The notes under the pieces: generated by a model | What the model saw: only the letters and a program-made list of their open reading frames with translations | The model's database searches: none | What the model was told of the DNA's origin: nothing | Assembly (NCBI GenBank): GCA_012697465.1 | Contig: GCA_012697465.1_4985.1 | Direction: 5' to 3' (one strand) | Source of the DNA: a phage | Length of the DNA stretch: 42,429 nucleotides | Position numbers and translations under genes: made by a program | In this document: positions 5,496 through 40,472 of the stretch, piece by piece | How the letters are laid out: every line of letters begins with the position of its first letter | Numbering within the stretch: position 1 is the stretch's first letter

Positions 5496-5572
5496 TGGCG
5501 ACCCCTACAGGAATCGAACCTGTAACCTACAGCTTAGAAGGCTGTCGCTCTATCCGGTTGAGCTAAGGGGCC
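5496..5572 (-). tRNA. tRNA-Arg (anticodon UCU)
   Basis: 77-nt cloverleaf folded by hand on the minus strand: 7-bp acceptor stem, D arm, anticodon stem ACAGC/GCUGU with loop CUUCUAA, T arm ACAGG-UUCGAUU-CCUGU, encoded CCA end. Confidence 0.8.
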
Positions 5573-5876: not shown

Positions 5877-7088
5877 ATGCTGACAGAACGCCAGATACAG
5901 GCGGCCATGCGCGCCGTGACCAGTGAAACAGTGTTGAACGATGGGGCCGCAGGACGTGGCAGCGGAAGCCTGCGCCTGCGCATTCGTGCCGGTGCAAAAG
6001 GGCCGAACGCTACCTGGCAGGCCGTCTGGTGGAACGCCGGAAAACAGACCAGTAAGGCGCTTGGCCGCTACCCGGATTTGAGCCTGGCCGACGCGCGCCG
6101 GAAGTATGAAACCGAAGTGCGCGACGTGCTGACGGCTGGCCGTGACCCAAACGCAGTGGTTGCAATGGCCGAAACCCCGACCATTGAAAAATTGTTCCAG
6201 TCTTACATCCAGTACCTGCGCGACAAAGAGACGGCGACCACCCACACATCAGAACACCTGCTGCTGACCGGCAAATACAACGCCGCTGATTTGCTTGGCC
6301 GCAACACCATTGCGTCAACCATCGAACCTGCCGACATCGCCAACGTGCTGGCCAAAGGCGTGAAGCGTGGCGCACGCCGAACCACCGACATGCAGCGCAC
6401 CGCCATGATGGCCGCATTTAATTGGGCGATGAAATCGACACACGATTACACGCAGGAAAACCGCATGGATTGGGGGCTGAAATATAACCCTGTTGCAGCC
6501 GTTCCGCGCGACCAGGCAGCCAACCGCACGCTGGATAGAAACCTGTCAGCGGAGGAAATGAAACACGTATGGGATAACGCGCCGGAACAAAGCGGCGACG
6601 TGATGCGCCTGGTGATGTGCACCGGCCAGCGCGTGATTGAAGTCATGCGCATAGCTGGTGCTGACGTGGACCTGAAAGCCAGGCTGTGGACGATGCCAGC
6701 CAGGAAAACAAAGGGCCGCAAGCAAACCCACATGGTGCCGCTGACCACGCAGGCGGTGGACATCCTGGCCACGCTGATTGACCTGTACGGTGACGGTTAC
6801 CTGTTCCCTGCCCGCGCTGGCGCTAAGGGTGACATTATCGGAATCCCAAGCGTCAGCCGTGGTGCCAGCCGCATGGCAGGCATTAAGCCGTTCACCCCGC
6901 GCGACCTGCGCCGCACCTGGAAGTCACGCGCCGGTGACGCTGGCATTGACAGGTTCACGCGTGACCTTATCCAGCAGCACGCGCAGACTGACACCGGCAG
7001 CAAACATTATGACCGCTTTGACTACCTGCCGCAGATGCGTGACGCGATGACCAAATGGGAAGCCTGGCTGGCTGACGCGCTGAAATAA
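5877..7088 (+). CDS. int: Tyrosine site-specific integrase (P4-type)
   Basis: 403 aa; N-terminal arm-binding-like region (GSGSLRLRIRAGAKG...WQAVWW...YPDLSLADAR), catalytic-domain motifs TGQRVIEV, RDLRRTW, and C-terminal H...HYDRFDY...WEAWL tail; next to a tRNA gene. Confidence 0.85.
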   Translation: MLTERQIQAAMRAVTSETVLNDGAAGRGSGSLRLRIRAGAKGPNATWQAVWWNAGKQTSKALGRYPDLSLADARRKYETEVRDVLTAGRDPNAVVAMAETPTIEKLFQSYIQYLRDKETATTHTSEHLLLTGKYNAADLLGRNTIASTIEPADIANVLAKGVKRGARRTTDMQRTAMMAAFNWAMKSTHDYTQENRMDWGLKYNPVAAVPRDQAANRTLDRNLSAEEMKHVWDNAPEQSGDVMRLVMCTGQRVIEVMRIAGADVDLKARLWTMPARKTKGRKQTHMVPLTTQAVDILATLIDLYGDGYLFPARAGAKGDIIGIPSVSRGASRMAGIKPFTPRDLRRTWKSRAGDAGIDRFTRDLIQQHAQTDTGSKHYDRFDYLPQMRDAMTKWEAWLADALK

Positions 7089-19219: not shown

Positions 19220-20122
19220 ATGAAACAAGTAACGATTGACACCGTGCGCGAGCGCATAGCGGAACTGGAAATGGTCAACAGTCACGGTGAACTGTCACTG
19301 CGCGGCGAATTTGAATTGGCGTGTTTGCGGCAGTTGGCGGCATTACAAGAGCGAGTTGCGGAACTGGAAGAAAACGACCGCGAACAAATGGATGAACTGT
19401 ACCGAAGAAATGCGACGATTCACCGGCTGCAACAGCAGGCATCGCAGGTAGTGACGGTCGCGCCGGTAGTGCCGGATGAAATGACACCGGAAATGATGCG
19501 CGCAGTCCAGTTGAATAGCGAACTTGGTGCGTATGCAGTGTCAAACTTATCTGGCGCATATGACCTGTTCTCCGAATTCTGGAAGGTGGCCCGCAGCGCC
19601 GCCATGCTCAACCAGGCGCACCAGGAACCAGACACAGACAACACCGCGCAGCAGTTCGAGGCGTTGGCCACCAGCGCGCAGCGTGAACCAGTGGCTGCGG
19701 TGAAGCACTACACCGGGAATGAATACCCCACTCTGAAATTTGCGCAGAATGAATGGTGCGTATGCGGTGACCGTGATGATGCGCAGGAACTGGCTGACGC
19801 CATCAACGCACTGGCCACCAGAGCGGGAAGCGGCAAGAGTGAACACATGTTGAATGCGGAACGGATAGCCAGGGAAGCGCAAGCACTGTCTGACAGGCTG
19901 AACGCCACCAACGCGGTGCATCCCCGCGTTAGTGGTTGGTCAGAGCGTCAGCAAAAGGTGATTTCTTATGCGCTTTGGCGTTTCAGTTGCGCCGCTTATC
20001 AAAAGGCCAATCAGGCTGCACAGACAAATAACAAAGACATGTTTGATCGCTTTATTCGTGACGCACGATGCGCCGAGGAAATACGCGAGGAATTCACCAG
20101 CGCGTGGGTCGGCAAGCTATGA
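19220..20122 (+). CDS. Hypothetical protein (coiled-coil N-terminus)
   Basis: 300-aa ORF downstream of conserved element copy B; no motif recognised. Confidence 0.5.
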   Translation: MKQVTIDTVRERIAELEMVNSHGELSLRGEFELACLRQLAALQERVAELEENDREQMDELYRRNATIHRLQQQASQVVTVAPVVPDEMTPEMMRAVQLNSELGAYAVSNLSGAYDLFSEFWKVARSAAMLNQAHQEPDTDNTAQQFEALATSAQREPVAAVKHYTGNEYPTLKFAQNEWCVCGDRDDAQELADAINALATRAGSGKSEHMLNAERIAREAQALSDRLNATNAVHPRVSGWSERQQKVISYALWRFSCAAYQKANQAAQTNNKDMFDRFIRDARCAEEIREEFTSAWVGKL

Positions 20123-20436
20123 GCCTGGCAACCGATATTCTGTGGCACGCTTTTGTTACGCAGCATAAACGGAAGTCGAAGCCAAAACCAGCACCAGTGG
20201 TGGCAAAACCAAAACCGGCAGTCACAGCAATCAGCAACCGCAACCTGCACCTGGCGCGCGTTCCATATTGTCAAAGGCGTGATGAAATGTGGCAGACGCG
20301 ATTGATTGATGGAAATCGGAAGATAACATTGGGAAGATTCCACACACTGCAACGCGCACAGATAGCATTGCGACTTTGGCACCTGTGGAAGAAAAGAGGA
20401 TATACCGACATCCCAACCGGACCAAACCGCGATTGA
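20119..20436 (+). CDS. AP2-like DNA-binding domain protein (putative)
   Basis: ATG overlapping upstream stop; MWQTRLIDGNRKITLGRFHTLQRAQIALRLW resembles the AP2/ERF-type beta-sheet DNA-binding fold. Confidence 0.35.
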   Translation: MSLATDILWHAFVTQHKRKSKPKPAPVVAKPKPAVTAISNRNLHLARVPYCQRRDEMWQTRLIDGNRKITLGRFHTLQRAQIALRLWHLWKKRGYTDIPTGPNRD

Positions 20437-20440
20437 AAAG

Positions 20441-20467
20441 TAACCGCCTTCGGGCGGTTTTTTCTTT
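20441..20467 (+). terminator. Rho-independent terminator
   Basis: AACCGCC-TTCG-GGCGGTT hairpin followed by TTTTTTCTTTGG. Confidence 0.6.
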
Positions 20468-20523
20468 GGTTGATTTAACAATATTAACCACTTTTTCTGG
20501 TAAGTAATTGTCATACAAATGCT

Positions 20524-20800
20524 ATTTGGGACTATCTATGGTCCCAAATGGGACTATCTTTTTTTGAGCTGGTCCCACGTTAAGTTACTGATATTAATAA
20601 CGAAAACACCATTTGGGACTATAAGGGACTATCTTTTTATAAAACATTATTTATAAATAAAGGGGGAGTAATAGTATATATAGGGAAATTTGGTCCCACT
20701 TGTCCCAAATCAGCCAGAAAATGGCGTTTTCTTTAAGTTAATCAATAGCATAACAGTGGGACTATCTTTTGCTGAGATAGTCCCAAGTTAGTCCCTTGTT
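20524..20800. repeat. Iteron-like array: about 11 direct and inverted copies of TGGGAC(T/C)ATCT around an AT-rich core
   Basis: Copies at about 20528, 20538(inv), 20550, 20571(inv), 20615, 20625, 20692(inv), 20702(inv), 20758, 20775(inv), 20791(inv); includes two perfect inverted-repeat pairs; no ORF. Confidence 0.65.
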
Positions 20801-20865
20801 ACTTTCGTATATTCTGTGTGCTACAATCCCCATATTGACTTTTATTTATAATTATTGGGGGTTAC

Positions 20866-21300
20866 ATGGAATTACCGCGCACTGTGCAGGAAATAGCTGA
20901 CGTTATTGGCCGTGAACGTGCGCTTTTTCTTATCGGACAACTGCCAAAACTGTGGGTGCCATCGCAGCAATACCACAAAGTCATCCTGTATGTACCAAAG
21001 CGGATTCGACCCAATGACCCACTGGTGAAAATCCTGGGGTGGCATGATTCCAGCAAGATGGTGCAGCACTTCGGAGGTGAAATGCTTCACCCGGCTAATT
21101 GTGAATACATTTACCGCCATTTCATTCACCGCAGCATTAAGCGGATGCACAGCGAAGGAATGGACGCAAAAGCTATTGCGGAACTTCTTGACGTGTCAGA
21201 GCGCACCGTTAAGCGCCATTGCACTGACAAACCCCACAAAGACACATCACCTGCAAATGACAACCATCAGCACCGACTACTAATGACTACGGGGCAATAA
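20866..21300 (+). CDS. Mor/C-family transcriptional activator (putative late-gene activator)
   Basis: 144 aa; central ...ILYVPK... segment and C-terminal HTH AIAELLDVSERTVKRH; directly upstream of the lysis and packaging genes. Confidence 0.4.
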   Translation: MELPRTVQEIADVIGRERALFLIGQLPKLWVPSQQYHKVILYVPKRIRPNDPLVKILGWHDSSKMVQHFGGEMLHPANCEYIYRHFIHRSIKRMHSEGMDAKAIAELLDVSERTVKRHCTDKPHKDTSPANDNHQHRLLMTTGQ

Positions 21301-32003: not shown

Positions 32004-32569
32004 ACGCCGATACTCACATTGATTTAGAAGTGCTGCACAGCGCCATTGTGGCAGACATTAAAGCCGCATTCCCGCAACTGGTCACCGTGGAGTTTTACCA
32101 GGATGACCCGGAGGAGCGCAAAACGCTTCCTATCCCTGCCTGCCTGCTGACCATCAGCGAACTGGAGGCAGACAACGACACTGACCCTGGCACCGAACAA
32201 CTGGCTGTAGTGGCCACGTTTGAGGCGCATTTTGTCATCAACAGCATCAGGACACCCCGCGCCGCCATGGCCATCAGGACGCTGGCCGCTGCCTTCATGG
32301 CCTGGCTGCGCAAGCGCCGGTGGACCAATCCCGCAGACCACGCCAGGAAACTGCCCACAGGGCCAGCCAACGTGGTTGGCGGCTTCCCTGATGACTTCAC
32401 CCCGGAAATGGACAAATACGAGGTGTGGCGCGTGGAATGGCAGCAGGTTATCCACCTGGGGGAAAGCGTGTGGAACGATGACGGCATAACCCCATCAGAG
32501 GTTTATTTCAGTTGGTCGCCTGAAATTGGCTACGGCAACGAAGAAGATTACGAGAAGGTGAACCCATGA
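31991..32569 (+). CDS. Tail completion protein (putative)
   Basis: 192-aa ORF directly upstream of gpV-like gene; assignment by position. Confidence 0.35.
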   Translation: MGQMNADTHIDLEVLHSAIVADIKAAFPQLVTVEFYQDDPEERKTLPIPACLLTISELEADNDTDPGTEQLAVVATFEAHFVINSIRTPRAAMAIRTLAAAFMAWLRKRRWTNPADHARKLPTGPANVVGGFPDDFTPEMDKYEVWRVEWQQVIHLGESVWNDDGITPSEVYFSWSPEIGYGNEEDYEKVNP

Positions 32570-33219
32570 GCGCAGAAGTTAGCGAACTGAATCGCCAGCT
32601 AAACAACGTTGTGCGCATCGGCACCATCAAACAACTGGATCTGGCCAACGCGCGTGCAAAGGTTTCCGTTGCTGGCTGCACCACTGACTGGCTACCATGG
32701 GGCACCAACCGCGCCGGTAAGCGCCGCGACTGGTCACCGCCTGTCATCGGTGAACAGGTGGTTTTGTTTGCGCCTTATGGCGATTTGGGACAGGCGGTCA
32801 TTGGGCCGTCAATCTTCCAGGATGACCACGCCGCGCCAGCAGCCAGCGCCGACCAGGAAACAACCGTTTACCCTGACGGCACAACGGTGGACTACAACAG
32901 CGCCAGCAACACGCTGACCATCACCGTGGCTGGTGCAGGTAATGTCATCATCAACTGCAAACAAGCCAACGTGAACACTGAAACAGCCACCGTGACGGCA
33001 TCCACCAGCGTAACACTGGACACGCCTGACACGTTTTGCACAGGCAACCTGACAGTGGCCAAAAGTTTCCAGATGGGAAGCGAAGGCGGAACGGCTACGA
33101 TGACTGGTAATGTGGCGATTGAAGGCGGAAGCCTGACACACAACGGCAAAAACATTGGCAGCAACCATGCTCACAGCGGCGTGCAGTCTGGTGGAAGCAA
33201 CACCGGCGCACCGGTATGA
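32566..33219 (+). CDS. Baseplate spike protein (P2 gpV-like)
   Basis: Colinear with P2 gpV as I remember it: ...TDWLPW..RAG..R.W.PP.IGEQV...GDL..A...PSI...D...P..S......DGT...Y......LT.T......V..PD...CTGNL...K...M......EGG.L..NGK...HAH. Confidence 0.8.
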   Translation: MSAEVSELNRQLNNVVRIGTIKQLDLANARAKVSVAGCTTDWLPWGTNRAGKRRDWSPPVIGEQVVLFAPYGDLGQAVIGPSIFQDDHAAPAASADQETTVYPDGTTVDYNSASNTLTITVAGAGNVIINCKQANVNTETATVTASTSVTLDTPDTFCTGNLTVAKSFQMGSEGGTATMTGNVAIEGGSLTHNGKNIGSNHAHSGVQSGGSNTGAPV

Positions 33220-33251: not shown

Positions 33252-33275
33252 CATGCGGGCATCATTGCCCGCATG
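33252..33275 (+). promoter_or_regulatory. Perfect inverted repeat CATGCGGGC-N6-GCCCGCATG enclosing the gpW start codon
   Basis: 9-bp arms; the right arm ends in the ATG of the gpW-like gene; no obvious Shine-Dalgarno upstream. Confidence 0.45.
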
Positions 33276-33611
33276 AAAGGAACAAACGCGGCTACAGGCG
33301 CGCCGCTGGATGGCATTGACCATCTGCGCCAATCCATACGTGACATACTCACGACGCCAATTGGCACGCGAGTGATGCGCCGCGACTACGGCAGCCGGTT
33401 ACCGTACCTGGTTGATGCACCGATGAACCGCAGCACGTTGCTGGACCTGTACGCAGCGACTGCGGAAGCACTGGAAGCCTGGGAGCCACGCATCAGCGTG
33501 CAGCAGGTGACAGCAACATCAGCAGAACCAGGACGCGTGGAATTGTCCATTACCGGCGAATACCTGCCAGACGGCAAACAAATAACAATTGACGGCATAG
33601 TGGTGACATAA
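33273..33611 (+). CDS. Baseplate assembly protein W (P2 gpW / gp25-like)
   Basis: 112 aa; gpW/GPW_gp25 family pattern (IRDILTTPIGTRVMRRDYGSRL...). Confidence 0.8.
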   Translation: MKGTNAATGAPLDGIDHLRQSIRDILTTPIGTRVMRRDYGSRLPYLVDAPMNRSTLLDLYAATAEALEAWEPRISVQQVTATSAEPGRVELSITGEYLPDGKQITIDGIVVT

Positions 33612-34514
33612 ATGGCGGGTGCCTTCACAGTTGTAAACTTATCCGAATTACCAGCGCCAAACGTTGTTGAGGCGCTGGACTTTGAAACGATCCTGGCGGC
33701 CATGATTGCCGATTTGCAGGAGCGTGACCCCACATTCACCGCAATGGTTGAATCTGACCCGGCTTATAAAATCCTGGAGGTTTGCGCCTATCGTGAATTG
33801 TTAATCCGTAAGCGCGTCAACGAATCCGCAAAGGCGGTGATGCTGGCTTATGCCACCGGAGCTGACCTCGACCAGCTTGGCGCTAACGTTGGAGTTCAGC
33901 GCCTGGTTATCAAGCCAGCAGATGACACCACCGTGCCGCCAACGCCTGCCGTCATGGAAGATGATGACGCTTTCCGCGCACGCATCCAGTTATCACCGGA
34001 GGGATACACCACTGCCGGTTCTGAAGGCAGTTACGTGTTTCACGGCCTGGGGGCAAGTTCTGACGTTAAGGATATTCAGGCGATCAGCCCTACACCTGGC
34101 AAGGTGACCGTTTACGTGTTATCGCGCACCGGCGACGGTACAGCGCCAACGGAAACCATTAACGCAGTAGCCAGCACCCTGAACGGTGAAACCGTGCGCC
34201 CGCTGACCGATGAAGTCACCGTGCTGTCAGCGAACATTGTTGATTACACTATTGACGCAGAACTGACGCTGTACCCCGGCCCGGATTCCAGCGTGGTGCT
34301 GCAATCGGCCATTGACGCCGTGACGGCTTATGCCGAAGCGCAGCGCCGCATCAGTTACGATGTGCCGCTGTCTGGACTTTACCGCGCATTGCATCAGCCA
34401 GGCGTGCAGAACGTGACCCTGAACCAGCCAACGGCATCGCTGGTGCTTGGTGAGGGGCAGGCCAGCTACTGCACAAACATCAACGTGACCCTGGCGGATA
34501 CAACTGATGTCTGA
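33612..34514 (+). CDS. Baseplate assembly protein J (P2 gpJ-like)
   Basis: 300 aa, colinear with the gpJ family; follows gpW. Confidence 0.8.
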   Translation: MAGAFTVVNLSELPAPNVVEALDFETILAAMIADLQERDPTFTAMVESDPAYKILEVCAYRELLIRKRVNESAKAVMLAYATGADLDQLGANVGVQRLVIKPADDTTVPPTPAVMEDDDAFRARIQLSPEGYTTAGSEGSYVFHGLGASSDVKDIQAISPTPGKVTVYVLSRTGDGTAPTETINAVASTLNGETVRPLTDEVTVLSANIVDYTIDAELTLYPGPDSSVVLQSAIDAVTAYAEAQRRISYDVPLSGLYRALHQPGVQNVTLNQPTASLVLGEGQASYCTNINVTLADTTDV

Positions 34515-35094
34515 TTTATTGCCTTATAACGCCACAGACCATGAACGCGCACTGGCCAACACCATAGCGCGCATCAGTGATGTGCCGGTGCTTGTTCGTG
34601 AAGTCTGGAACCCCGACACTGCGCCAGCATCCGTTCTTCCCTGGCTGGCGTGGGCTTTCAGCGTTGATGATTGGGATGCGAACTGGACCGACGCGCAAAA
34701 GCGCAACGTCATTAAGCAGTCAGTATATTCGCAGCGCATTAAGGGAACCATCGGTGCTGTTACGCGCCAGCTTGCTGCGCTTGGCTACACCATCCAGATT
34801 CTTGAATGGTGGCAGCAAGTGCCGGAAGGGCAGCCGTACACGTTTGATGTTTACATCACCGCCAGTCAGTACCCGCTGACAAAGCGCGATTACAACAAGG
34901 TTATGGAAGTCATAGACACCAACAAAAACCTGCGTTCGCATATGGGTATAGTTACGATTGTTGCACAATCATTGTCGAATGTAACTTGCGCCACAGTTTC
35001 AGCGTTAGGAGCTGAAATTTCGGTGACAAATTACGGATACGTTCCGGCAGCCGTGAACGATTACGCACTAATGAACAACACGATAAGGGTTTAA
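34507..35094 (+). CDS. Tail protein I (P2 gpI-like)
   Basis: 195 aa; position and sequence (PWLAWAFSVDDWD...) as for P2 gpI. Confidence 0.75.
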   Translation: MSDLLPYNATDHERALANTIARISDVPVLVREVWNPDTAPASVLPWLAWAFSVDDWDANWTDAQKRNVIKQSVYSQRIKGTIGAVTRQLAALGYTIQILEWWQQVPEGQPYTFDVYITASQYPLTKRDYNKVMEVIDTNKNLRSHMGIVTIVAQSLSNVTCATVSALGAEISVTNYGYVPAAVNDYALMNNTIRV

Positions 35095-35095
35095 C

Positions 35096-37153
35096 GTGGA
35101 ACTGAAAACATATTTCGCGCAAGACCGCGCCGGAAACCTGATTCCAAACGCTACGGTCACTATCTACCTGACCGGCACCAATACGCTGGCGACAGGTCTG
35201 AAAACCGCAACCGATGCGGCATTGTCTAACCCGTTCACCGCCAGCCCTGATGGGAAAATTCAGTTCAAAGCGGCTGACGGCATCTATGACATGCAGATCT
35301 CATACAGCACGCAGATCGGCCCGCGCATCACGATTCAATGTCTTGACCAGGCTGGACAGGTTGCAGCAGCACAGCAGGCTGCAAATGATGCTGTAGCTAT
35401 TAAAGGCGAAATTCAGCAGATCATCAATAACGCAGGCGAACAGTCAACGCTTGTAGTATTGGCGCAACCGGACGGGGCCGACAAAGTTGGTTCGCCTTAC
35501 GGCGGCACTATCTCTAGCGACATGATGCCATCGGTTATCAAAAAAATCGGCACATTCCAAAGTGGAGCATTGATTACAGACAGTTTGCAAGCATTGTACG
35601 ACGCGTCGTCTGGTGACTGGTATATGTACATTGGCGCTATACCTGGCGGCGGCCTCACCGTCCTTGCTGGATCGTCACCTAATTCATCCTGGGTATCCGT
35701 CGGGCTATTGAACGGATCGCCCATTAACAGTATAAAAAACTGGGTTTTGGACGCGTCACTAGCGAATGCCAGTGCAACGACCAGCCGGATAAATTTAATG
35801 CTATCCTCACTGGTTAAACTGAATATCTTTTCGTGCAGGATAAACGATTTTAGCGAGACACATATTAATGGCACCCTGACCTTTAGCGCAGGTATGCGAA
35901 TTATCGGTAATGGGATGTTCAGAAACCCTCTTGTGTATCATGGCACTGGAGATGCGATTGTTTATGACAGCCAAATTTACTTTGAGAATTTTAACCTGAA
36001 GCAAGGCGACGAAGCCTGGACGGGTAGCGCTATCGTTTGCCGTGGTCAGCAAGCATATTGCTCATTCCATAACGTCAATGTTGAAAGGTTCAGATATGGG
36101 CATATCTCGCGATACTCTATCTGGATTAAATACTCCAATGTCCGAATGAAAAACGTGGCTTGTGCGTTCAGATTTTTACGAAACTCTACAGCTACAGATA
36201 AAAATGACCCTATAGCCTCGGGTGGATGGAACCTTAATGGAGGTTGGTTCCATAACGTAATGGATATGAGCCTGGTAACGATAGACGGCTGTGAAGTTGG
36301 CATATGGGGTTCACCTATGTGCGCGGTTATCAATGCCCCAACAGTACAGAATGTTGCGGCCAGGGGCGATGGCACTAACTTAGTTCTTCCCGATGGCATT
36401 GAGCCGTGTGCGATGTATTTACAAGGTGGTACTACCACCACTACTACAAATAGTGCCGTAAACTGGAACCTGCAAATAAATCAGCTTTACATCGAGTGGG
36501 CTAACGCTGGAGTGCTAATAGAGGGTTATAGGCTGTGCAAGATAAGTCTGTTCGCCCAGGGTGGTCCCTCTGCGACAAGGATGAAATTCGCGGTAAAGGC
36601 AACATCAGGTTCCAATGTGATCGTTACTGACATTGTGGGGCAGGACTACTTTGAGTCTTTATTTGTTGCAGATAGTAAGTCCACGATTGAGGTTCAGCGG
36701 CGAGTTGGCCCTATGGTTGGCACCATGTCGTCGGGCGATTCGACGGGATTAATAACGTACAAAGAACAGGACAAAATTTTCAATCTCAATGCAGCCGCAG
36801 GTGTTTCAGGCCGTAAATACCTTATAGCTCCTGTAGAAGCGGGATCGTATGAACTGGAAGTACAAGTAGTAGTGGATGGTATATCTATCGCCGGTGGCAT
36901 ATTTGACATCTCCATAAGGAATAACACTTTATGGGCTAGTGCTTACACATCCCTACAGCCGTTGAGTCTCAATACTACAACGCCAATATATCCTGACGGA
37001 AAAACATCAACCCCTATATCGATAGATGTGTCTGGAGGAAACTTATACTTAATTGTTGGCACGGGACTTAGCTATTCCGCCAGGATAATTTTGAGGAACA
37101 AGGTTAGATGGAATTACTCTTCACCTATAGAGATACCTGATTCCCCAATTTGA
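35096..37153 (+). CDS. Tailspike / tail fibre protein with beta-helix-like C-terminal domain (putative depolymerase/receptor-binding protein)
   Basis: 685 aa, GTG start; conserved fibre-like N-terminus then markedly AT-rich Ser/Thr/Asn/Gly-rich repetitive region. Confidence 0.55.
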   Translation: MELKTYFAQDRAGNLIPNATVTIYLTGTNTLATGLKTATDAALSNPFTASPDGKIQFKAADGIYDMQISYSTQIGPRITIQCLDQAGQVAAAQQAANDAVAIKGEIQQIINNAGEQSTLVVLAQPDGADKVGSPYGGTISSDMMPSVIKKIGTFQSGALITDSLQALYDASSGDWYMYIGAIPGGGLTVLAGSSPNSSWVSVGLLNGSPINSIKNWVLDASLANASATTSRINLMLSSLVKLNIFSCRINDFSETHINGTLTFSAGMRIIGNGMFRNPLVYHGTGDAIVYDSQIYFENFNLKQGDEAWTGSAIVCRGQQAYCSFHNVNVERFRYGHISRYSIWIKYSNVRMKNVACAFRFLRNSTATDKNDPIASGGWNLNGGWFHNVMDMSLVTIDGCEVGIWGSPMCAVINAPTVQNVAARGDGTNLVLPDGIEPCAMYLQGGTTTTTTNSAVNWNLQINQLYIEWANAGVLIEGYRLCKISLFAQGGPSATRMKFAVKATSGSNVIVTDIVGQDYFESLFVADSKSTIEVQRRVGPMVGTMSSGDSTGLITYKEQDKIFNLNAAAGVSGRKYLIAPVEAGSYELEVQVVVDGISIAGGIFDISIRNNTLWASAYTSLQPLSLNTTTPIYPDGKTSTPISIDVSGGNLYLIVGTGLSYSARIILRNKVRWNYSSPIEIPDSPI

Positions 37154-37256
37154 TTTACGGTAGTTGGTGATTTTCTTTCTGTGTCAGCTATCATAATAGA
37201 TAGCCGACACTCCATGATGGCATGGTATTCTTCTTATAATATTATGGAATATAAAA

Positions 37257-38594
37257 ATGGCATACGCAACAATTCATACTAACTACGGCCTGCAACGGTT
37301 AGCGCAGGCCGAAACAACCGGCGTTCCAATCAACCTGATTGAAATGGCTGTGGGTGATGGCAACGGTAACGAAACCACACCGTCACAGTCGCAAACCCAA
37401 CTGGTGCGCGAACGTTTTCGCGCCACCATCAACCGTGTTTATCAGGACGCCAGCGACCCGCTGCGCTTCACGGCTGAATTGATTATTCCGGCCAGTGTCG
37501 GTGGATTCACGCTGCGCGAAGTCGGTGTGTTCGATGATACCGGATCGCTGTTCGTGGTTGGCAACCTGCCATCCACTTACAAGCCGGAAAACGACGAAGG
37601 CGCGTATTCTGACACGGTTGTGCGCGTTGACTTCCTGGTTAGCAATGCCAGTACCATCACGTTGCAGGTTGACCCAAACGTTGTGGTTGTTACGCAGCAG
37701 TGGATCAGCAACAACGTGACTGCGGCGACTATCATTCCTGGCGGTACGACTGGCCAGATTCTGGCGAAGGAATCCAACGCTGATGGCGACTACATTTGGA
37801 AAGACCCGACTGACGCAATTGTTGTGGTTGACACCATCGCGGAGAAACAAACCCTGGCGGCGTCGCAAACCATCGTTGACCTGACTGAAACGATCACCTA
37901 CGGCCTGGCGGTTTACATCGATGGTGTTCGCCTGCCGATGGGTAGCGGTGTTGACGAATGGCAGCCAGACCCTGCAATCACAACCCGCGTTATCCTGGGT
38001 AAATCCTACCCAGATGGATCAGTTTTCCAGGGTGTGAATAACGAACCAGCAGGCAGCGCACCGGCACCGCTGGAACGTGCAAAAAACCTGTCTGATGTTC
38101 AGAGTGCTTCAACATCTCGCACCAACCTGGATGTGTTCAGCAAGGAGGAAACACGACAGATGGCACCTGCTGGTCTGGTGGCTACGTTCGCAAGAAGCAC
38201 CGCGCCAACTGGCTGGCTGAAAGCGAATGGCGCAGCCGTGAGCCGTACCGCATACGCTGACCTGTACGCGGCCATTGGCACGCGATTTGGCGCTGGTGAC
38301 GGCATCAATACGTTCAACCTTCCAGATCTGCGCGGTGAGTTCATTCGCGGATGGGATGATGGCAGGGGCGTTGATTCAGGCCGTGCACTTGGTAGCGCAC
38401 AGGGCCAACTGATTGAGTCGCACGATCACGGAATGGACCCATACAAACAAGTTAACGCAAACATTCTGCAACCTGTCACCGGTGGCGCTGAACTGTCATC
38501 GGTTGGCGTTGGCGGCACGGTACGAACAAAAGCCACCGGCGGTTCCGAAACCCGACCGCGAAACGTTGCATTGCTGTATTGCATTAAATTCTAA
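37257..38594 (+). CDS. Tail fibre protein (P2 gpH-like N-terminus, tail-collar-like C-terminus)
   Basis: N-terminus MAVGDG...AELIIPASVGGF.LREVG..DD.G.L..V.N...SYKP parallels P2 gpH; C-terminus FNLPDLRGEFIRGWDDGRG...R.R.. Confidence 0.75.
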   Translation: MAYATIHTNYGLQRLAQAETTGVPINLIEMAVGDGNGNETTPSQSQTQLVRERFRATINRVYQDASDPLRFTAELIIPASVGGFTLREVGVFDDTGSLFVVGNLPSTYKPENDEGAYSDTVVRVDFLVSNASTITLQVDPNVVVVTQQWISNNVTAATIIPGGTTGQILAKESNADGDYIWKDPTDAIVVVDTIAEKQTLAASQTIVDLTETITYGLAVYIDGVRLPMGSGVDEWQPDPAITTRVILGKSYPDGSVFQGVNNEPAGSAPAPLERAKNLSDVQSASTSRTNLDVFSKEETRQMAPAGLVATFARSTAPTGWLKANGAAVSRTAYADLYAAIGTRFGAGDGINTFNLPDLRGEFIRGWDDGRGVDSGRALGSAQGQLIESHDHGMDPYKQVNANILQPVTGGAELSSVGVGGTVRTKATGGSETRPRNVALLYCIKF

Positions 38595-38603
38595 GGCGGT
38601 ATC

Positions 38604-38885
38604 ATGACCACAAAGATTGTTTATCAGCATGACATAGCCGGAATGTTCACCGGCGAAACGGAAGCCGATGAATCACCACTGGAGCCGGGTGTGTTCCTGA
38701 TTCCGGCGAGATGTGTTGAAGTGGCACCACCAGCATATTCTGGCGACCAGTGGCCGCGCTGGAACGGAGCAAATTGGGAACTGATTAACGCATCACCAGC
38801 AAACGAAAATCAACCTGCCAACCCGGTTGATAAACTTCGGGATTTTCTGATGGCAAATCCTGACGTTGCTGAATTGATTAAGTAA
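38604..38885 (+). CDS. Tail fibre assembly chaperone (putative)
   Basis: 93-aa ORF immediately after the fibre gene; W-rich motif DQWPRWNGANWELI. Confidence 0.45.
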   Translation: MTTKIVYQHDIAGMFTGETEADESPLEPGVFLIPARCVEVAPPAYSGDQWPRWNGANWELINASPANENQPANPVDKLRDFLMANPDVAELIK

Positions 38886-38932
38886 TATTGTGACTAATCA
38901 CATTATTCGCGCCTGGTATTATTGTCGCCTTT

Positions 38933-38955
38933 GCCCGTATCACGCGGGCTTTTTT
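38933..38955 (+). terminator. Rho-independent terminator after the fibre genes
   Basis: GC hairpin GCCCG...CGGGC followed by TTTTTT. Confidence 0.5.
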
Positions 38956-38958
38956 ACG

Positions 38959-38975
38959 GACAAACCCCAAGAAGA
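38959..38975 (+). repeat. 17-bp element GACAAACCCCAAGAAGA, copy 4
   Basis: Exact 17-mer between the terminator and the sheath start (73 nt upstream of the ATG). Confidence 0.7.
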
Positions 38976-39047
38976 AGCCACGCACTGTTCCTGCGACCAT
39001 CACACTGCGAATTTTCACTGTGTGCACAGTCAATAGGAAACCGAATA

Positions 39048-40472
39048 ATGGCAGGTACTGATTTCTTACATGGCGTGGAGGTGCTGGAAATTGATTCCGG
39101 TTCACGCGTCATTCAAACCGTTAAATCCAGCGTCATTGGCATTGTAGGCACAGCGCCGAATGCCGACCCTGACGCATTCCCGATTAACACCCCTACCCTG
39201 ATTGCTGGCAGCCAGCGCGAAGCGGCTAAACTGGACCTACTTGGAACCGGTGAAGGCACCCTGCCAAAAGCACTGGATGCCATCCTGGATCAGATCGGCG
39301 CGGTAGTCATCGTTGTGCGCGTTGAAGAAGGAGACGACGAAGCCGCAACACTGGCCAACATCATGGGAGGTGTTAACTCATCAACCGGCAAATATGAAGG
39401 CGTTCACGCACTGCTTGGCGCTGAATCCGTTGTGGGCTACTCGCCGCGCATTCTGTGCGTGCCTGGCTTCACGCATACCCGCGTTCAGGATGGCGTCACA
39501 GCTATCACCATTGGCAATGGCGGCAGCGGCTACACCACGGCACCGACAGTCACACTGACTGGTGGCGGCGGTTCTGGCGCAACTGCGGAAGCCACTGTGG
39601 TTGGTGGAGTCATCACCAAAATCACCGTCACCAATTCCGGTATGGGTTACACCAGCGCGCCAACCGTAGCCATCACTGGCGGAAACGGCACCGGCGCAAC
39701 TGCAACCGCATCCGTTGGCGTTGCAGCCAATGCCGTGGTTTCTGAACTGCTTGGCATCGCCAACCGCCTGCGTGCTGTCATTATCGCTGACGGCCCTAAC
39801 ACCAACGACGCTGACGCCATCGCCTACCGCAAAGACTTTGGCAGCAAGCGCGTTTATGTGGTTGACCCAAAAGTGCTGGTGCTTGACGAAGATGGAACCA
39901 CGATTACTGATTGGGCATCTCCGCGCGTGGCTGGCCTGATTGCCCGCATCGACAACGAGCGCGGTTTCTGGTGGTCACCATCAAACCAGGAAATCTATGG
40001 AATCCAGGGCACGTCCCGAACCATTGATTTCACCCTGGGTGACACGTCCAGCCGTGCAAACCTGCTGAACGAAAACGAAGTCACCACCATCATTCGCCAG
40101 GATGGTTTCCGCCTGTGGGGAAACCGCACATGTTCCAGCGATCCGAAATGGGCGTTTCTGTGCGTTGTTCGCACGGCTGACATCATCAATGACAGCCTGC
40201 TGCGTGCGCACCTGTGGGCCGTAGACCGTGGCATCACCAAACAATACGTCAATGACGTGATTGAAGGCGTGAACGCGTACCTGCGCAACCTGGTGAGCCT
40301 GGGAGCAATTCTTGGCGGCACGTGTTGGGCTGACCCTGACTTAAATACTGCTGACCAGATCGCTGACGGTAAGGTATACTTTGATTTTGATTTCACGCCT
40401 GTTTATCCGGCTGAACACATTATCTTCCGCAGCCAATTGACCAACGATTATATTAGTGAGGTATTCGAATAA
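39048..40472 (+). CDS. Tail sheath protein (P2 gpFI-like) with inserted tandem-repeat segment
   Basis: Start at the ATG with RBS (track ORF extends upstream from a TTG across non-coding DNA); sheath-like N- and C-terminal regions; insert with two about 24-aa repeats GYT(T/S)APTV..TGG.G.GATA.A.V (about 39528-39719). Confidence 0.8.

Follow-up and report, generated by a model that had tools for sequence, protein, structure and literature searches.

The nearest described counterpart of the tail locus reported here is found in Escherichia phage vB_EcoM_ECOO78, in which ORF42 encodes Dpo42, a virion-associated depolymerase of capsule or exopolysaccharide (EPS); the expressed protein degrades biofilm as well as capsule, and growing haloes are seen with the phage (PMC5539073). 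ECOO78 and phage ep3 are classified in the genus Jilinvirus of the subfamily Iiscvirinae, and two receptor-binding proteins have already been noted in Jilinvirus (PMC11990801). The subject of this report is a tailspike gene for a protein of 685 amino acids (aa), located at 35096–37153 on the + strand of a phage sequence of 42,429 nucleotides (nt) (NCBI GenBank assembly GCA_012697465.1, contig GCA_012697465.1_4985.1), the whole of which is called the window below. The window is a complete Jilinvirus-like (Iiscvirinae) myophage genome of ~42 kb: the exact 685-aa protein, with identical neighbours, is also present on Logan contig SRR11124264_73, which measures 42,459 bp, and the sequence was for this reason regarded as essentially the whole phage genome.

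The spike gene occupies the same place as the gene of Dpo42, between a gpI-like gene and the gene of a 445-aa collar fibre, and shares with it the GTG start and the MELKTYFAQD N-terminus. The cloning primer of Dpo42 starts with GTGGAACTGAAAACAT, as the spike gene does (PMC5539073). The two proteins align at E 6e-36, with residues 1–85 highly similar, but past residue ~120 no sequence relation was found, and the cassette in the window comes from a rare family. This part, of low G+C content (GC), is a transferred and recently imported receptor-binding cassette.

An imported receptor-binding cassette

Between 35459 and 37295 the window is 93.4% identical at the DNA level (BLASTN) to L003, a 6.2-kb phage contig on which the spike gene, P0001 (1592–3865), lies between sheath-initiator and Baseplate_J-like genes, in a baseplate module that differs from that of the Jilinvirus-like phage. 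The flanks follow the family relatives. Two of these, the metagenomic genomes L004 and L005 of 42–43 kb, match the window continuously (BLASTN) from the capsid gene to 35469/35478 and resume exactly at 37256, one base 5' of the fibre start codon; with flanks of 85–90% identity, they hold unrelated sequence between the two borders. The horizontal exchange of a receptor-binding or depolymerase domain, which an earlier reading of the letters by themselves (the first-pass annotation) had suspected from the composition, is seen here directly in the DNA.

Both DNA borders are resolved, the 5' border to about 20 nt and the 3' border to about 70 nt. Alignment of the junctions places the 5' crossover in the codons for LAQPDGA and the 3' crossover in the first codons (~70 nt) of the fibre gene, where homology with L003 ends at 37295. 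The 3' recombination junction (37253–37328, + strand) comprises the fibre start codon and the first ~23 codons, and its DNA is conserved across unrelated phage taxa. L003 has no such fibre gene, and after the shared spacer it carries a truncated copy of the fibre start (MAFSATNTNYGLQAHVIAM, ending in a stop codon). The cassette was gained by homologous recombination, with one crossover in the neck motif STLVVLAQPDG and the other within the opening ~70 nt of the fibre gene.

The composition of the spike gene changes at the same place. The first 417 nt of the open reading frame (ORF) have a GC of 0.535, equal to the mean of the whole sequence, and the break comes after codon ~139: from 35513 to 37153 the GC is 0.455 and the GC at third codon positions (GC3) 0.461, with a GC3 of 0.56–0.62 in the flanking genes (0.57 being the comparison value for the 0.46 of the cassette). 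The AT-rich shift had been placed from about 35500 onward, a position that was borne out and agrees with the DNA homology breakpoint at 35459–35479. In a sliding analysis the shift proved significant, the segment 35513–37153 lying 2.8 standard deviations below the mean of all 1641-nt windows, of which 1.9% had a lower GC, all in one other region near 20265. The low GC of this segment is attributed to the import of a foreign cassette; L003 has an overall GC of 0.48 and its cassette 0.46. The richness in Ser, Thr, Asn and Gly that had been pointed out is mild. Together these residues make up 34.0%, versus 26.9% in other structural proteins, a bias driven by Ser (10.5% versus 5.8%), Asn and Gly but not by Thr.

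The lowest GC of the genome is found at ~20265–20960 (0.36 over 500 nt at 20458), below that of the spike cassette. The ORFs reported as overlapping this stretch, 19220–20122 (+) and 20011–20514 (−), are without Pfam match, and the stretch might have been imported too, or have a regulatory role.

Upstream of the 5' border, the spike consists of an N-terminal anchor domain (35096–35350, + strand; aa ~1–85), a presumed baseplate attachment module identified by homology to other spikes, and a neck (35351–35479, + strand; aa ~86–128), which ends in GEQSTLVVLAQPDGA and contains the 5' recombination junction at 35459–35479. Homology of the anchor to the Dpo42, MTx and Arya spikes, and the location of the gene between gpI and the fibre, point to attachment to the virion. 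Among the ~30–40 best-scoring spikes that share the anchor, mostly on contigs of 40–44 kb, the conserved N-terminal stretch (aa ~1–130) shows 64–89% identity and the C-terminal parts differ. Across 120 related spikes, the ends of N-terminal homology cluster at aa ~90–99, 130–139 and 200–209; 31 of the 120 have GEQSTLVVLAQPxG at residue 122 and unrelated sequence directly after it. Swapping of the C-terminal part is family-wide, with dozens of spikes having a common anchor and diverging at residue ~128. The neck is also present in the Klebsiella depolymerase Depo32 (PDB 7vz3, E 6e-7), the only PDB sequence match of the spike, and the neck segment 35386–35508 shows 77–80% DNA identity to depolymerase genes of Webervirus and Pylasvirus.

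At its other end the cassette travels with an AT-rich spacer of 103 nt 3' of the spike gene (37154–37256, + strand; GC 0.33), and a 196-nt stretch that includes this spacer, 37100–37295, is 92% identical to L003. Two hairpins in the spacer, at 37181–37210 and 37211–37248, are conserved with L003. The first is formed by GTGTCAGCTATC...GATAGCCGACAC; a weak promoter-like site and one resembling a terminator overlap the second. No regulatory element is proposed, since promoter-like and terminator-like sites at the locus are no commoner than in shuffled sequence and the hairpin is only mildly stable, the spacer fold of −26.6 kcal/mol being modestly more stable than that of shuffled sequence (z = −2.3).

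The same receptor-binding domain was found on several other carriers. It is fused to a P22-type head-binding domain in P0003 and to PF18668 adaptors in P0001, P0004 and P0005, and it occurs in a lambdoid-type prophage fragment (L010) and as a stand-alone chromosomal gene (P0006). In P0001, the same MELKTYFAQD anchor type and the cassette are separated by an extra PF18668 (TSP1/Gp66 N-terminal) domain; the spike at 35096–37153 therefore looks like an adaptor-deleted version. P0006 (L009 1420–3042) is a 540-aa homologue with 46% identity to the receptor-binding part and without a phage adaptor. Its surroundings are chromosome-like, between a tilS-like gene and genes for FTR1/FtrD iron uptake and a MacB-type transporter, and the protein could be a glycan enzyme, either domesticated or of host origin. 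Some homologues carry precomputed PF27183 and PF27114 annotations, neither of which could be named.

The fibre gene start as a cassette border in other phages

The start of the fibre gene (37253–37328) recurs with 80–94% identity in 96 phage records; Klebsiella phages account for 82. The relic-bearing genomes examined were those of Webervirus phages pKP-BS317-1.1, JY917, phi1_146037 and MUC-5.2, of Pylas (Schitoviridae) and of NDO71 (Mydovirus). Relics were located at L012 5001–5070, L014 3501–3573, L015 3501–3570, L016 3501–3550, L017 3501–3565 and L003 3968–4007. In the genomes named, the relic follows the stop codon of a gene for a depolymerase or tail fibre, with unchanged orientation, and falls in unannotated DNA or forms a tiny ORF; one relic ORF of 33 codons is annotated ‘tail collar protein’. 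The relics in the genomes examined are truncated by a stop codon or have lost the ATG. Between stop codon and relic there are 0–55 bp in most cases and ~100 bp in L003; in phi1_146037 an extra ORF of 87 aa intervenes.

In Webervirus and Pylas the neck segment is found 1.7–2.2 kb 5' of the relic, a spacing shared with the window. The two cassette borders therefore enclose unrelated depolymerase cassettes in no fewer than three further phage taxa. Passages of PMC10408124 and bioRxiv 10.64898/2026.05.12.724579 describe the sharing of receptor-binding domains across morphotypes with sharp N-terminal swap boundaries; in the literature passages searched, no mention of a 3' fibre-start relic was found.

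A more far-reaching idea, which we put forward tentatively and with some doubt, is that the neck motif (GEQSTLVVLAQPDG) and the ~70-nt collar-fibre start constitute a shared pair of homology arms around depolymerase cassettes, and that the relics are kept for capturing new cassettes. Such arms would bracket cassettes in myo-, sipho- and podophages alike (Jilinvirus-like, Webervirus, Pylasvirus, Mydovirus and the L003 type). If true, the relics would not be scars, and they would belong to a cross-family cassette-exchange system with defined borders, operating between unrelated phages.

The precisely resolved borders, together with a fibre-start relic by which depolymerase cassettes can be recognised in other phage families, are the most valuable result obtained here. 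The two borders offer practical cut sites for the construction of chimeric spikes, in the Jilinvirus group as well as in Webervirus. The relic 3' of many Klebsiella depolymerase genes can serve as a marker of which way, and how recently, cassettes have moved from one phage family to another.

Predicted fold and presumed function of the spike

The C-terminal part of the spike was modelled with AlphaFold as a monomer, whose residue numbers need 139 added to give those of the protein. With an alignment of 54 sequences, the mean per-residue confidence (pLDDT) was 90.3 and the predicted template modelling score (pTM) 0.83; a first run on eight sequences was weak (pLDDT 64) and was not relied on, and gave the same fold class. 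The first part of the imported cassette is predicted to be a small beta domain (aa 140–205; 35513–35710, + strand; model residues 10–62, pLDDT ~95), which aligns with the PF18668-type segment of Dpo42. It is followed by a cap helix and a pectin-lyase-like right-handed parallel beta-helix (aa 222–547; 35759–36736, + strand), the presumed glycan-binding and glycan-cleaving body, with the cap helix at aa 222–241 and a long series of short strands at aa 246–547. A C-terminal beta-sandwich (aa 552–671; 36749–37108, + strand; model residues 413–532) completes the model; its strands have a pLDDT of ~80–92, except for a loop at model residues 483–498. Matches to PHROG families span aa 121–228 of the spike.

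Structural matches in BFVD were to tailspikes and pectate-lyase-superfamily proteins, and in the PDB the family profile matched pectin-lyase-type structures, at their cap and first coils. PF12708 (Pect-lyase_RHGA_epim) is matched by 21 of 54 distant relatives, but the 685-aa protein and its C-terminal part gave no Pfam match at E ≤ 0.01, PF12708 included; the relationship is therefore at superfamily level only. The beta-helix that the first-pass annotation had predicted for 35096–37153 gains support from the 54-sequence model, the PDB profile matches and the PF12708 matches in relatives. The receptor-binding domain is rare and has no curated family. Residues 140–685 have eight detectable relatives (six full-length) in a protein database of 5.8 billion clusters, and an exhaustive HMMER search of 1.84 billion representatives returned 114 relatives, most with 25–37% identity over the central 250–350 residues. 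In 84 relatives, R339, W378, N379, N387, Y465 and E467 are invariant and E400 is kept in 82, while R362 and Q488 are also invariant or nearly so. The conserved residues are spaced roughly one coil apart, which suggests a groove, and E400 and E467 would be the obvious candidates for catalytic carboxylates.

We favour, with a probability of about 0.8 for the reading as a whole, a Jilinvirus-like tailspike in which a conserved anchor and neck carry a beta-helix cassette acquired by recombination, with glycan binding, and probably cleavage, as its likely function. The anchor (aa ~1–85) and neck (to aa ~128) would fix the spike to the P2-type baseplate, and from LAQPDGA onward the imported cassette would supply the small beta domain, the beta-helix (aa ~246–547) and the C-terminal beta-sandwich. 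Judging by Dpo42 and other beta-helix spikes, the spike is most likely trimeric. Its target would be a variable polysaccharide on the surface of an enterobacterial host (O-antigen or capsule), which it would bind and probably cleave, and in this way the conserved 445-aa collar fibre and the baseplate would gain access to the cell surface.

Several observations weigh against this reading. No Pfam, NCBIfam or PDB sequence match falls in the beta-helix of the spike, and neither a catalytic activity nor a substrate could be derived for the protein, for which hydrolase, lyase and esterase would all be possible. The best structural neighbours are a mixture of hydrolases, lyases, epimerases and the non-enzymatic adhesin PfbA, so that the fold alone is no proof of an enzyme. 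Moreover, the cassette was unmatched in 5,426 complete E. coli genomes (near and distant modes) and in IMG/VR, and 185,579 GTDB species genomes gave only one distant relative, in a Vibrio prophage.

One alternative is a binding-only domain of the adhesin type, which would recognise a surface glycan or protein without cleaving it. We consider this unlikely: two invariant glutamates, with invariant Arg, Tyr, Asn and Trp about one turn apart in 84 distant relatives, form the kind of pattern that an active-site groove would show. Dpo42, the homologue at the same position, is an active enzyme (PMC5539073), and glycan-cleaving spikes make up most of the structural neighbours. It is less probable still, and by a good measure, that the phage has only one working host-recognition device, the spike being a decaying passenger or the fibre a purely structural part of the baseplate. 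The relative HeidiAbel is entirely without spike, yet infects through O-antigen, and the small Gp53-like_C fibre gene of relatives is absent here, from which it follows that genes at this locus can be lost. Both ORFs, however, are complete and can be aligned with their homologues over the entire length, the family signature residues of the spike are all intact and the fibre retains both Pfam domains at strong scores.

Still another explanation for the low GC would be an amino-acid or codon constraint on a beta-helix evolving in place, without any transfer. Its probability is close to nil, even though Ser, Asn, Gly and Ile are slightly more frequent in the C-terminal part, a bias that favours AT-rich codons. 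GC3 falls as much as total GC (0.46 versus 0.57), the non-coding spacer falls further, to 0.33, and segment and spacer, unlike the flanks, are 93% identical to a contig of another type of phage; in relatives with flanks of 85–90% identity, the sequence between them is unrelated. On GC3 and DNA homology, a purely compositional constraint was rejected.

With the tailspike read as a conserved anchor and neck bearing an imported cassette, the locus is a clean natural case of retargeting in a small myophage: anchor, neck, fibre and baseplate are fixed and a cassette of ~1.8 kb is exchanged. The receptor-binding domain, being rare, uncharacterised and without a curated family, may offer a new glycan specificity.

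The tail module and its comparison with known systems

The tail genes around the spike show 79–93% DNA identity to those of the Escherichia phages Alux-21, ECO1230-10, ep3, ECOO78 and HeidiAbel and of Enterobacter phage Arya; outside the cassette, identity is 85–93% with Alux-21 and 82% with ECO1230-10. Based on Pfam matches, the genes for the V spike/hub protein (32566–33219), W/gp25 (33273–33611) and Baseplate_J (33612–34514) are followed by that of a P2 gpI-like protein (34507–35094, + strand; Tail_P2_I, E 2.4e-48), the last conserved baseplate gene before the spike, with 85–86% DNA identity to L004 and L005. In the ORF list, the GTG start of the spike gene lies one base past the gpI stop codon. 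The fibre gene (37257–38594, + strand) and the gene of a 93-aa protein (38604–38885, + strand) come next, and the sheath gene starts at 39048, as placed from the called genes of L002. Between the latter two, a consensus scan located a terminator-like hairpin with a T-run (38933–38949, + strand). An Rfam scan of 34500–39500 gave no match.

This gene order is syntenic with that of ECOO78, L004 and L005. In the last two it reads I, spike, 445-aa fibre, ~100-aa gene, (small Gp53-like_C fibre), sheath, and the module V-W-J-I-spike-collar fibre-~100 aa-sheath, with nucleotide similarity to named members, identifies a Jilinvirus/Iiscvirinae tail. I, spike, fibre, ~100-aa gene and sheath is the standard order in this group and the layout is not new. 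The first-pass annotation had described a P2-type order J-I-H-G interrupted by an extra 685-aa protein: the ORFs are as it described them, but the spike is extra solely with P2 as the yardstick, since the layout is normal for the Jilinvirus group. A dual-device layout is documented already and will not surprise the specialist.

The Gp53-like_C (Pfam) gene, of 120–249 aa, lies between the ~100-aa gene and the sheath gene in L004 (8842–9204), L005 (8572–9321) and L001 (8034–8726). It is missing in the window, where 38885–39048 leaves only ~160 nt and the terminator-like hairpin. Elsewhere in the genome, a seemingly intact tyrosine integrase (Arm-DNA-binding and Phage_integrase domains; 5877–7088, +) adjoins a tRNA-Arg(TCT) at 5496–5572 (−). 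This pair bears on whether Jilinvirus-like phages are temperate, an issue discussed for HeidiAbel (PMC11990801).

The 445-aa fibre has a P2 gpH-type N-terminal domain, PF12571 (E 5.1e-49, profile positions 2–150 of 150), and a Collar domain, PF07484 (E 2e-22), and matches PHROG 327 (E 3e-114). It is intact, with 71% identity to ECOO78 ORF41 and 90% DNA identity to L004 and L005, and is conserved within the family, in contrast to the variable spike cassette. A division of labour would fit this pattern, the variable spike being glycan-specific and the conserved fibre serving a conserved secondary receptor. The earlier label of a P2 gpH-like fibre holds for the N-terminus but not for the distal part: in place of a gpH-type region served by a gpG/Caudo_TAP chaperone, the Collar domain was found. 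A likeness of this distal tail-collar part to T4 gp12 is presumed, in line with the BASEL paper.

The 93-aa protein, always encoded directly 3' of the fibre gene, has 80% identity to ECOO78 ORF40 and 743 homologues of about 93–101 aa. Its best match is PHROG 1766 ‘tail fiber protein’ (E 2e-12), with PHROG 105 ‘tail fiber assembly’ at only E 2.7e-4, and the homologue in Arya is named ‘tail fiber assembly protein’ in one source. Searches of Pfam (for Caudo_TAP even at E ≤ 5) and NCBIfam gave no match, and in pairwise comparison no similarity was seen to HeidiAbel Gp16, annotated as a tail fibre assembly protein, or to a Caudo_TAP protein. By its sequence and place it is possibly a fibre assembly factor.

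Compared with P2, the locus shares the V-W-J-I neighbourhood and a fibre with a PF12571 N-terminal domain, but the distal part of the fibre is of the tail-collar type (PF07484) and the 93-aa protein is without Caudo_TAP match where P2 has gpH and gpG. The beta-helix structures that the spike resembles are those of AS12 gp42 (from an Acinetobacter phage), CBA120 TSP2, K5 lyase, Depo32, HK620/P22-type spikes and the AlgE4 epimerase, with 7–13% identity in the helix, and no known catalytic motif of the solved spikes or AlgE4 could be mapped onto the 685-aa protein. With the modular receptor-binding proteins described in passages of PMC10408124, Latka et al. 2019 (PMC6872550) and bioRxiv 10.64898/2026.05.12.724579, the spike has in common an anchor and neck with a swap boundary, and the occurrence of the same domain on different adaptors and in different morphotypes. 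It differs from them in that both DNA borders are resolved, to about 20 and 70 nt, and in that the 3' border is formed by the start of the neighbouring fibre gene, which has been carried as a non-coding relic into genomes of Webervirus, Pylasvirus and Mydovirus.

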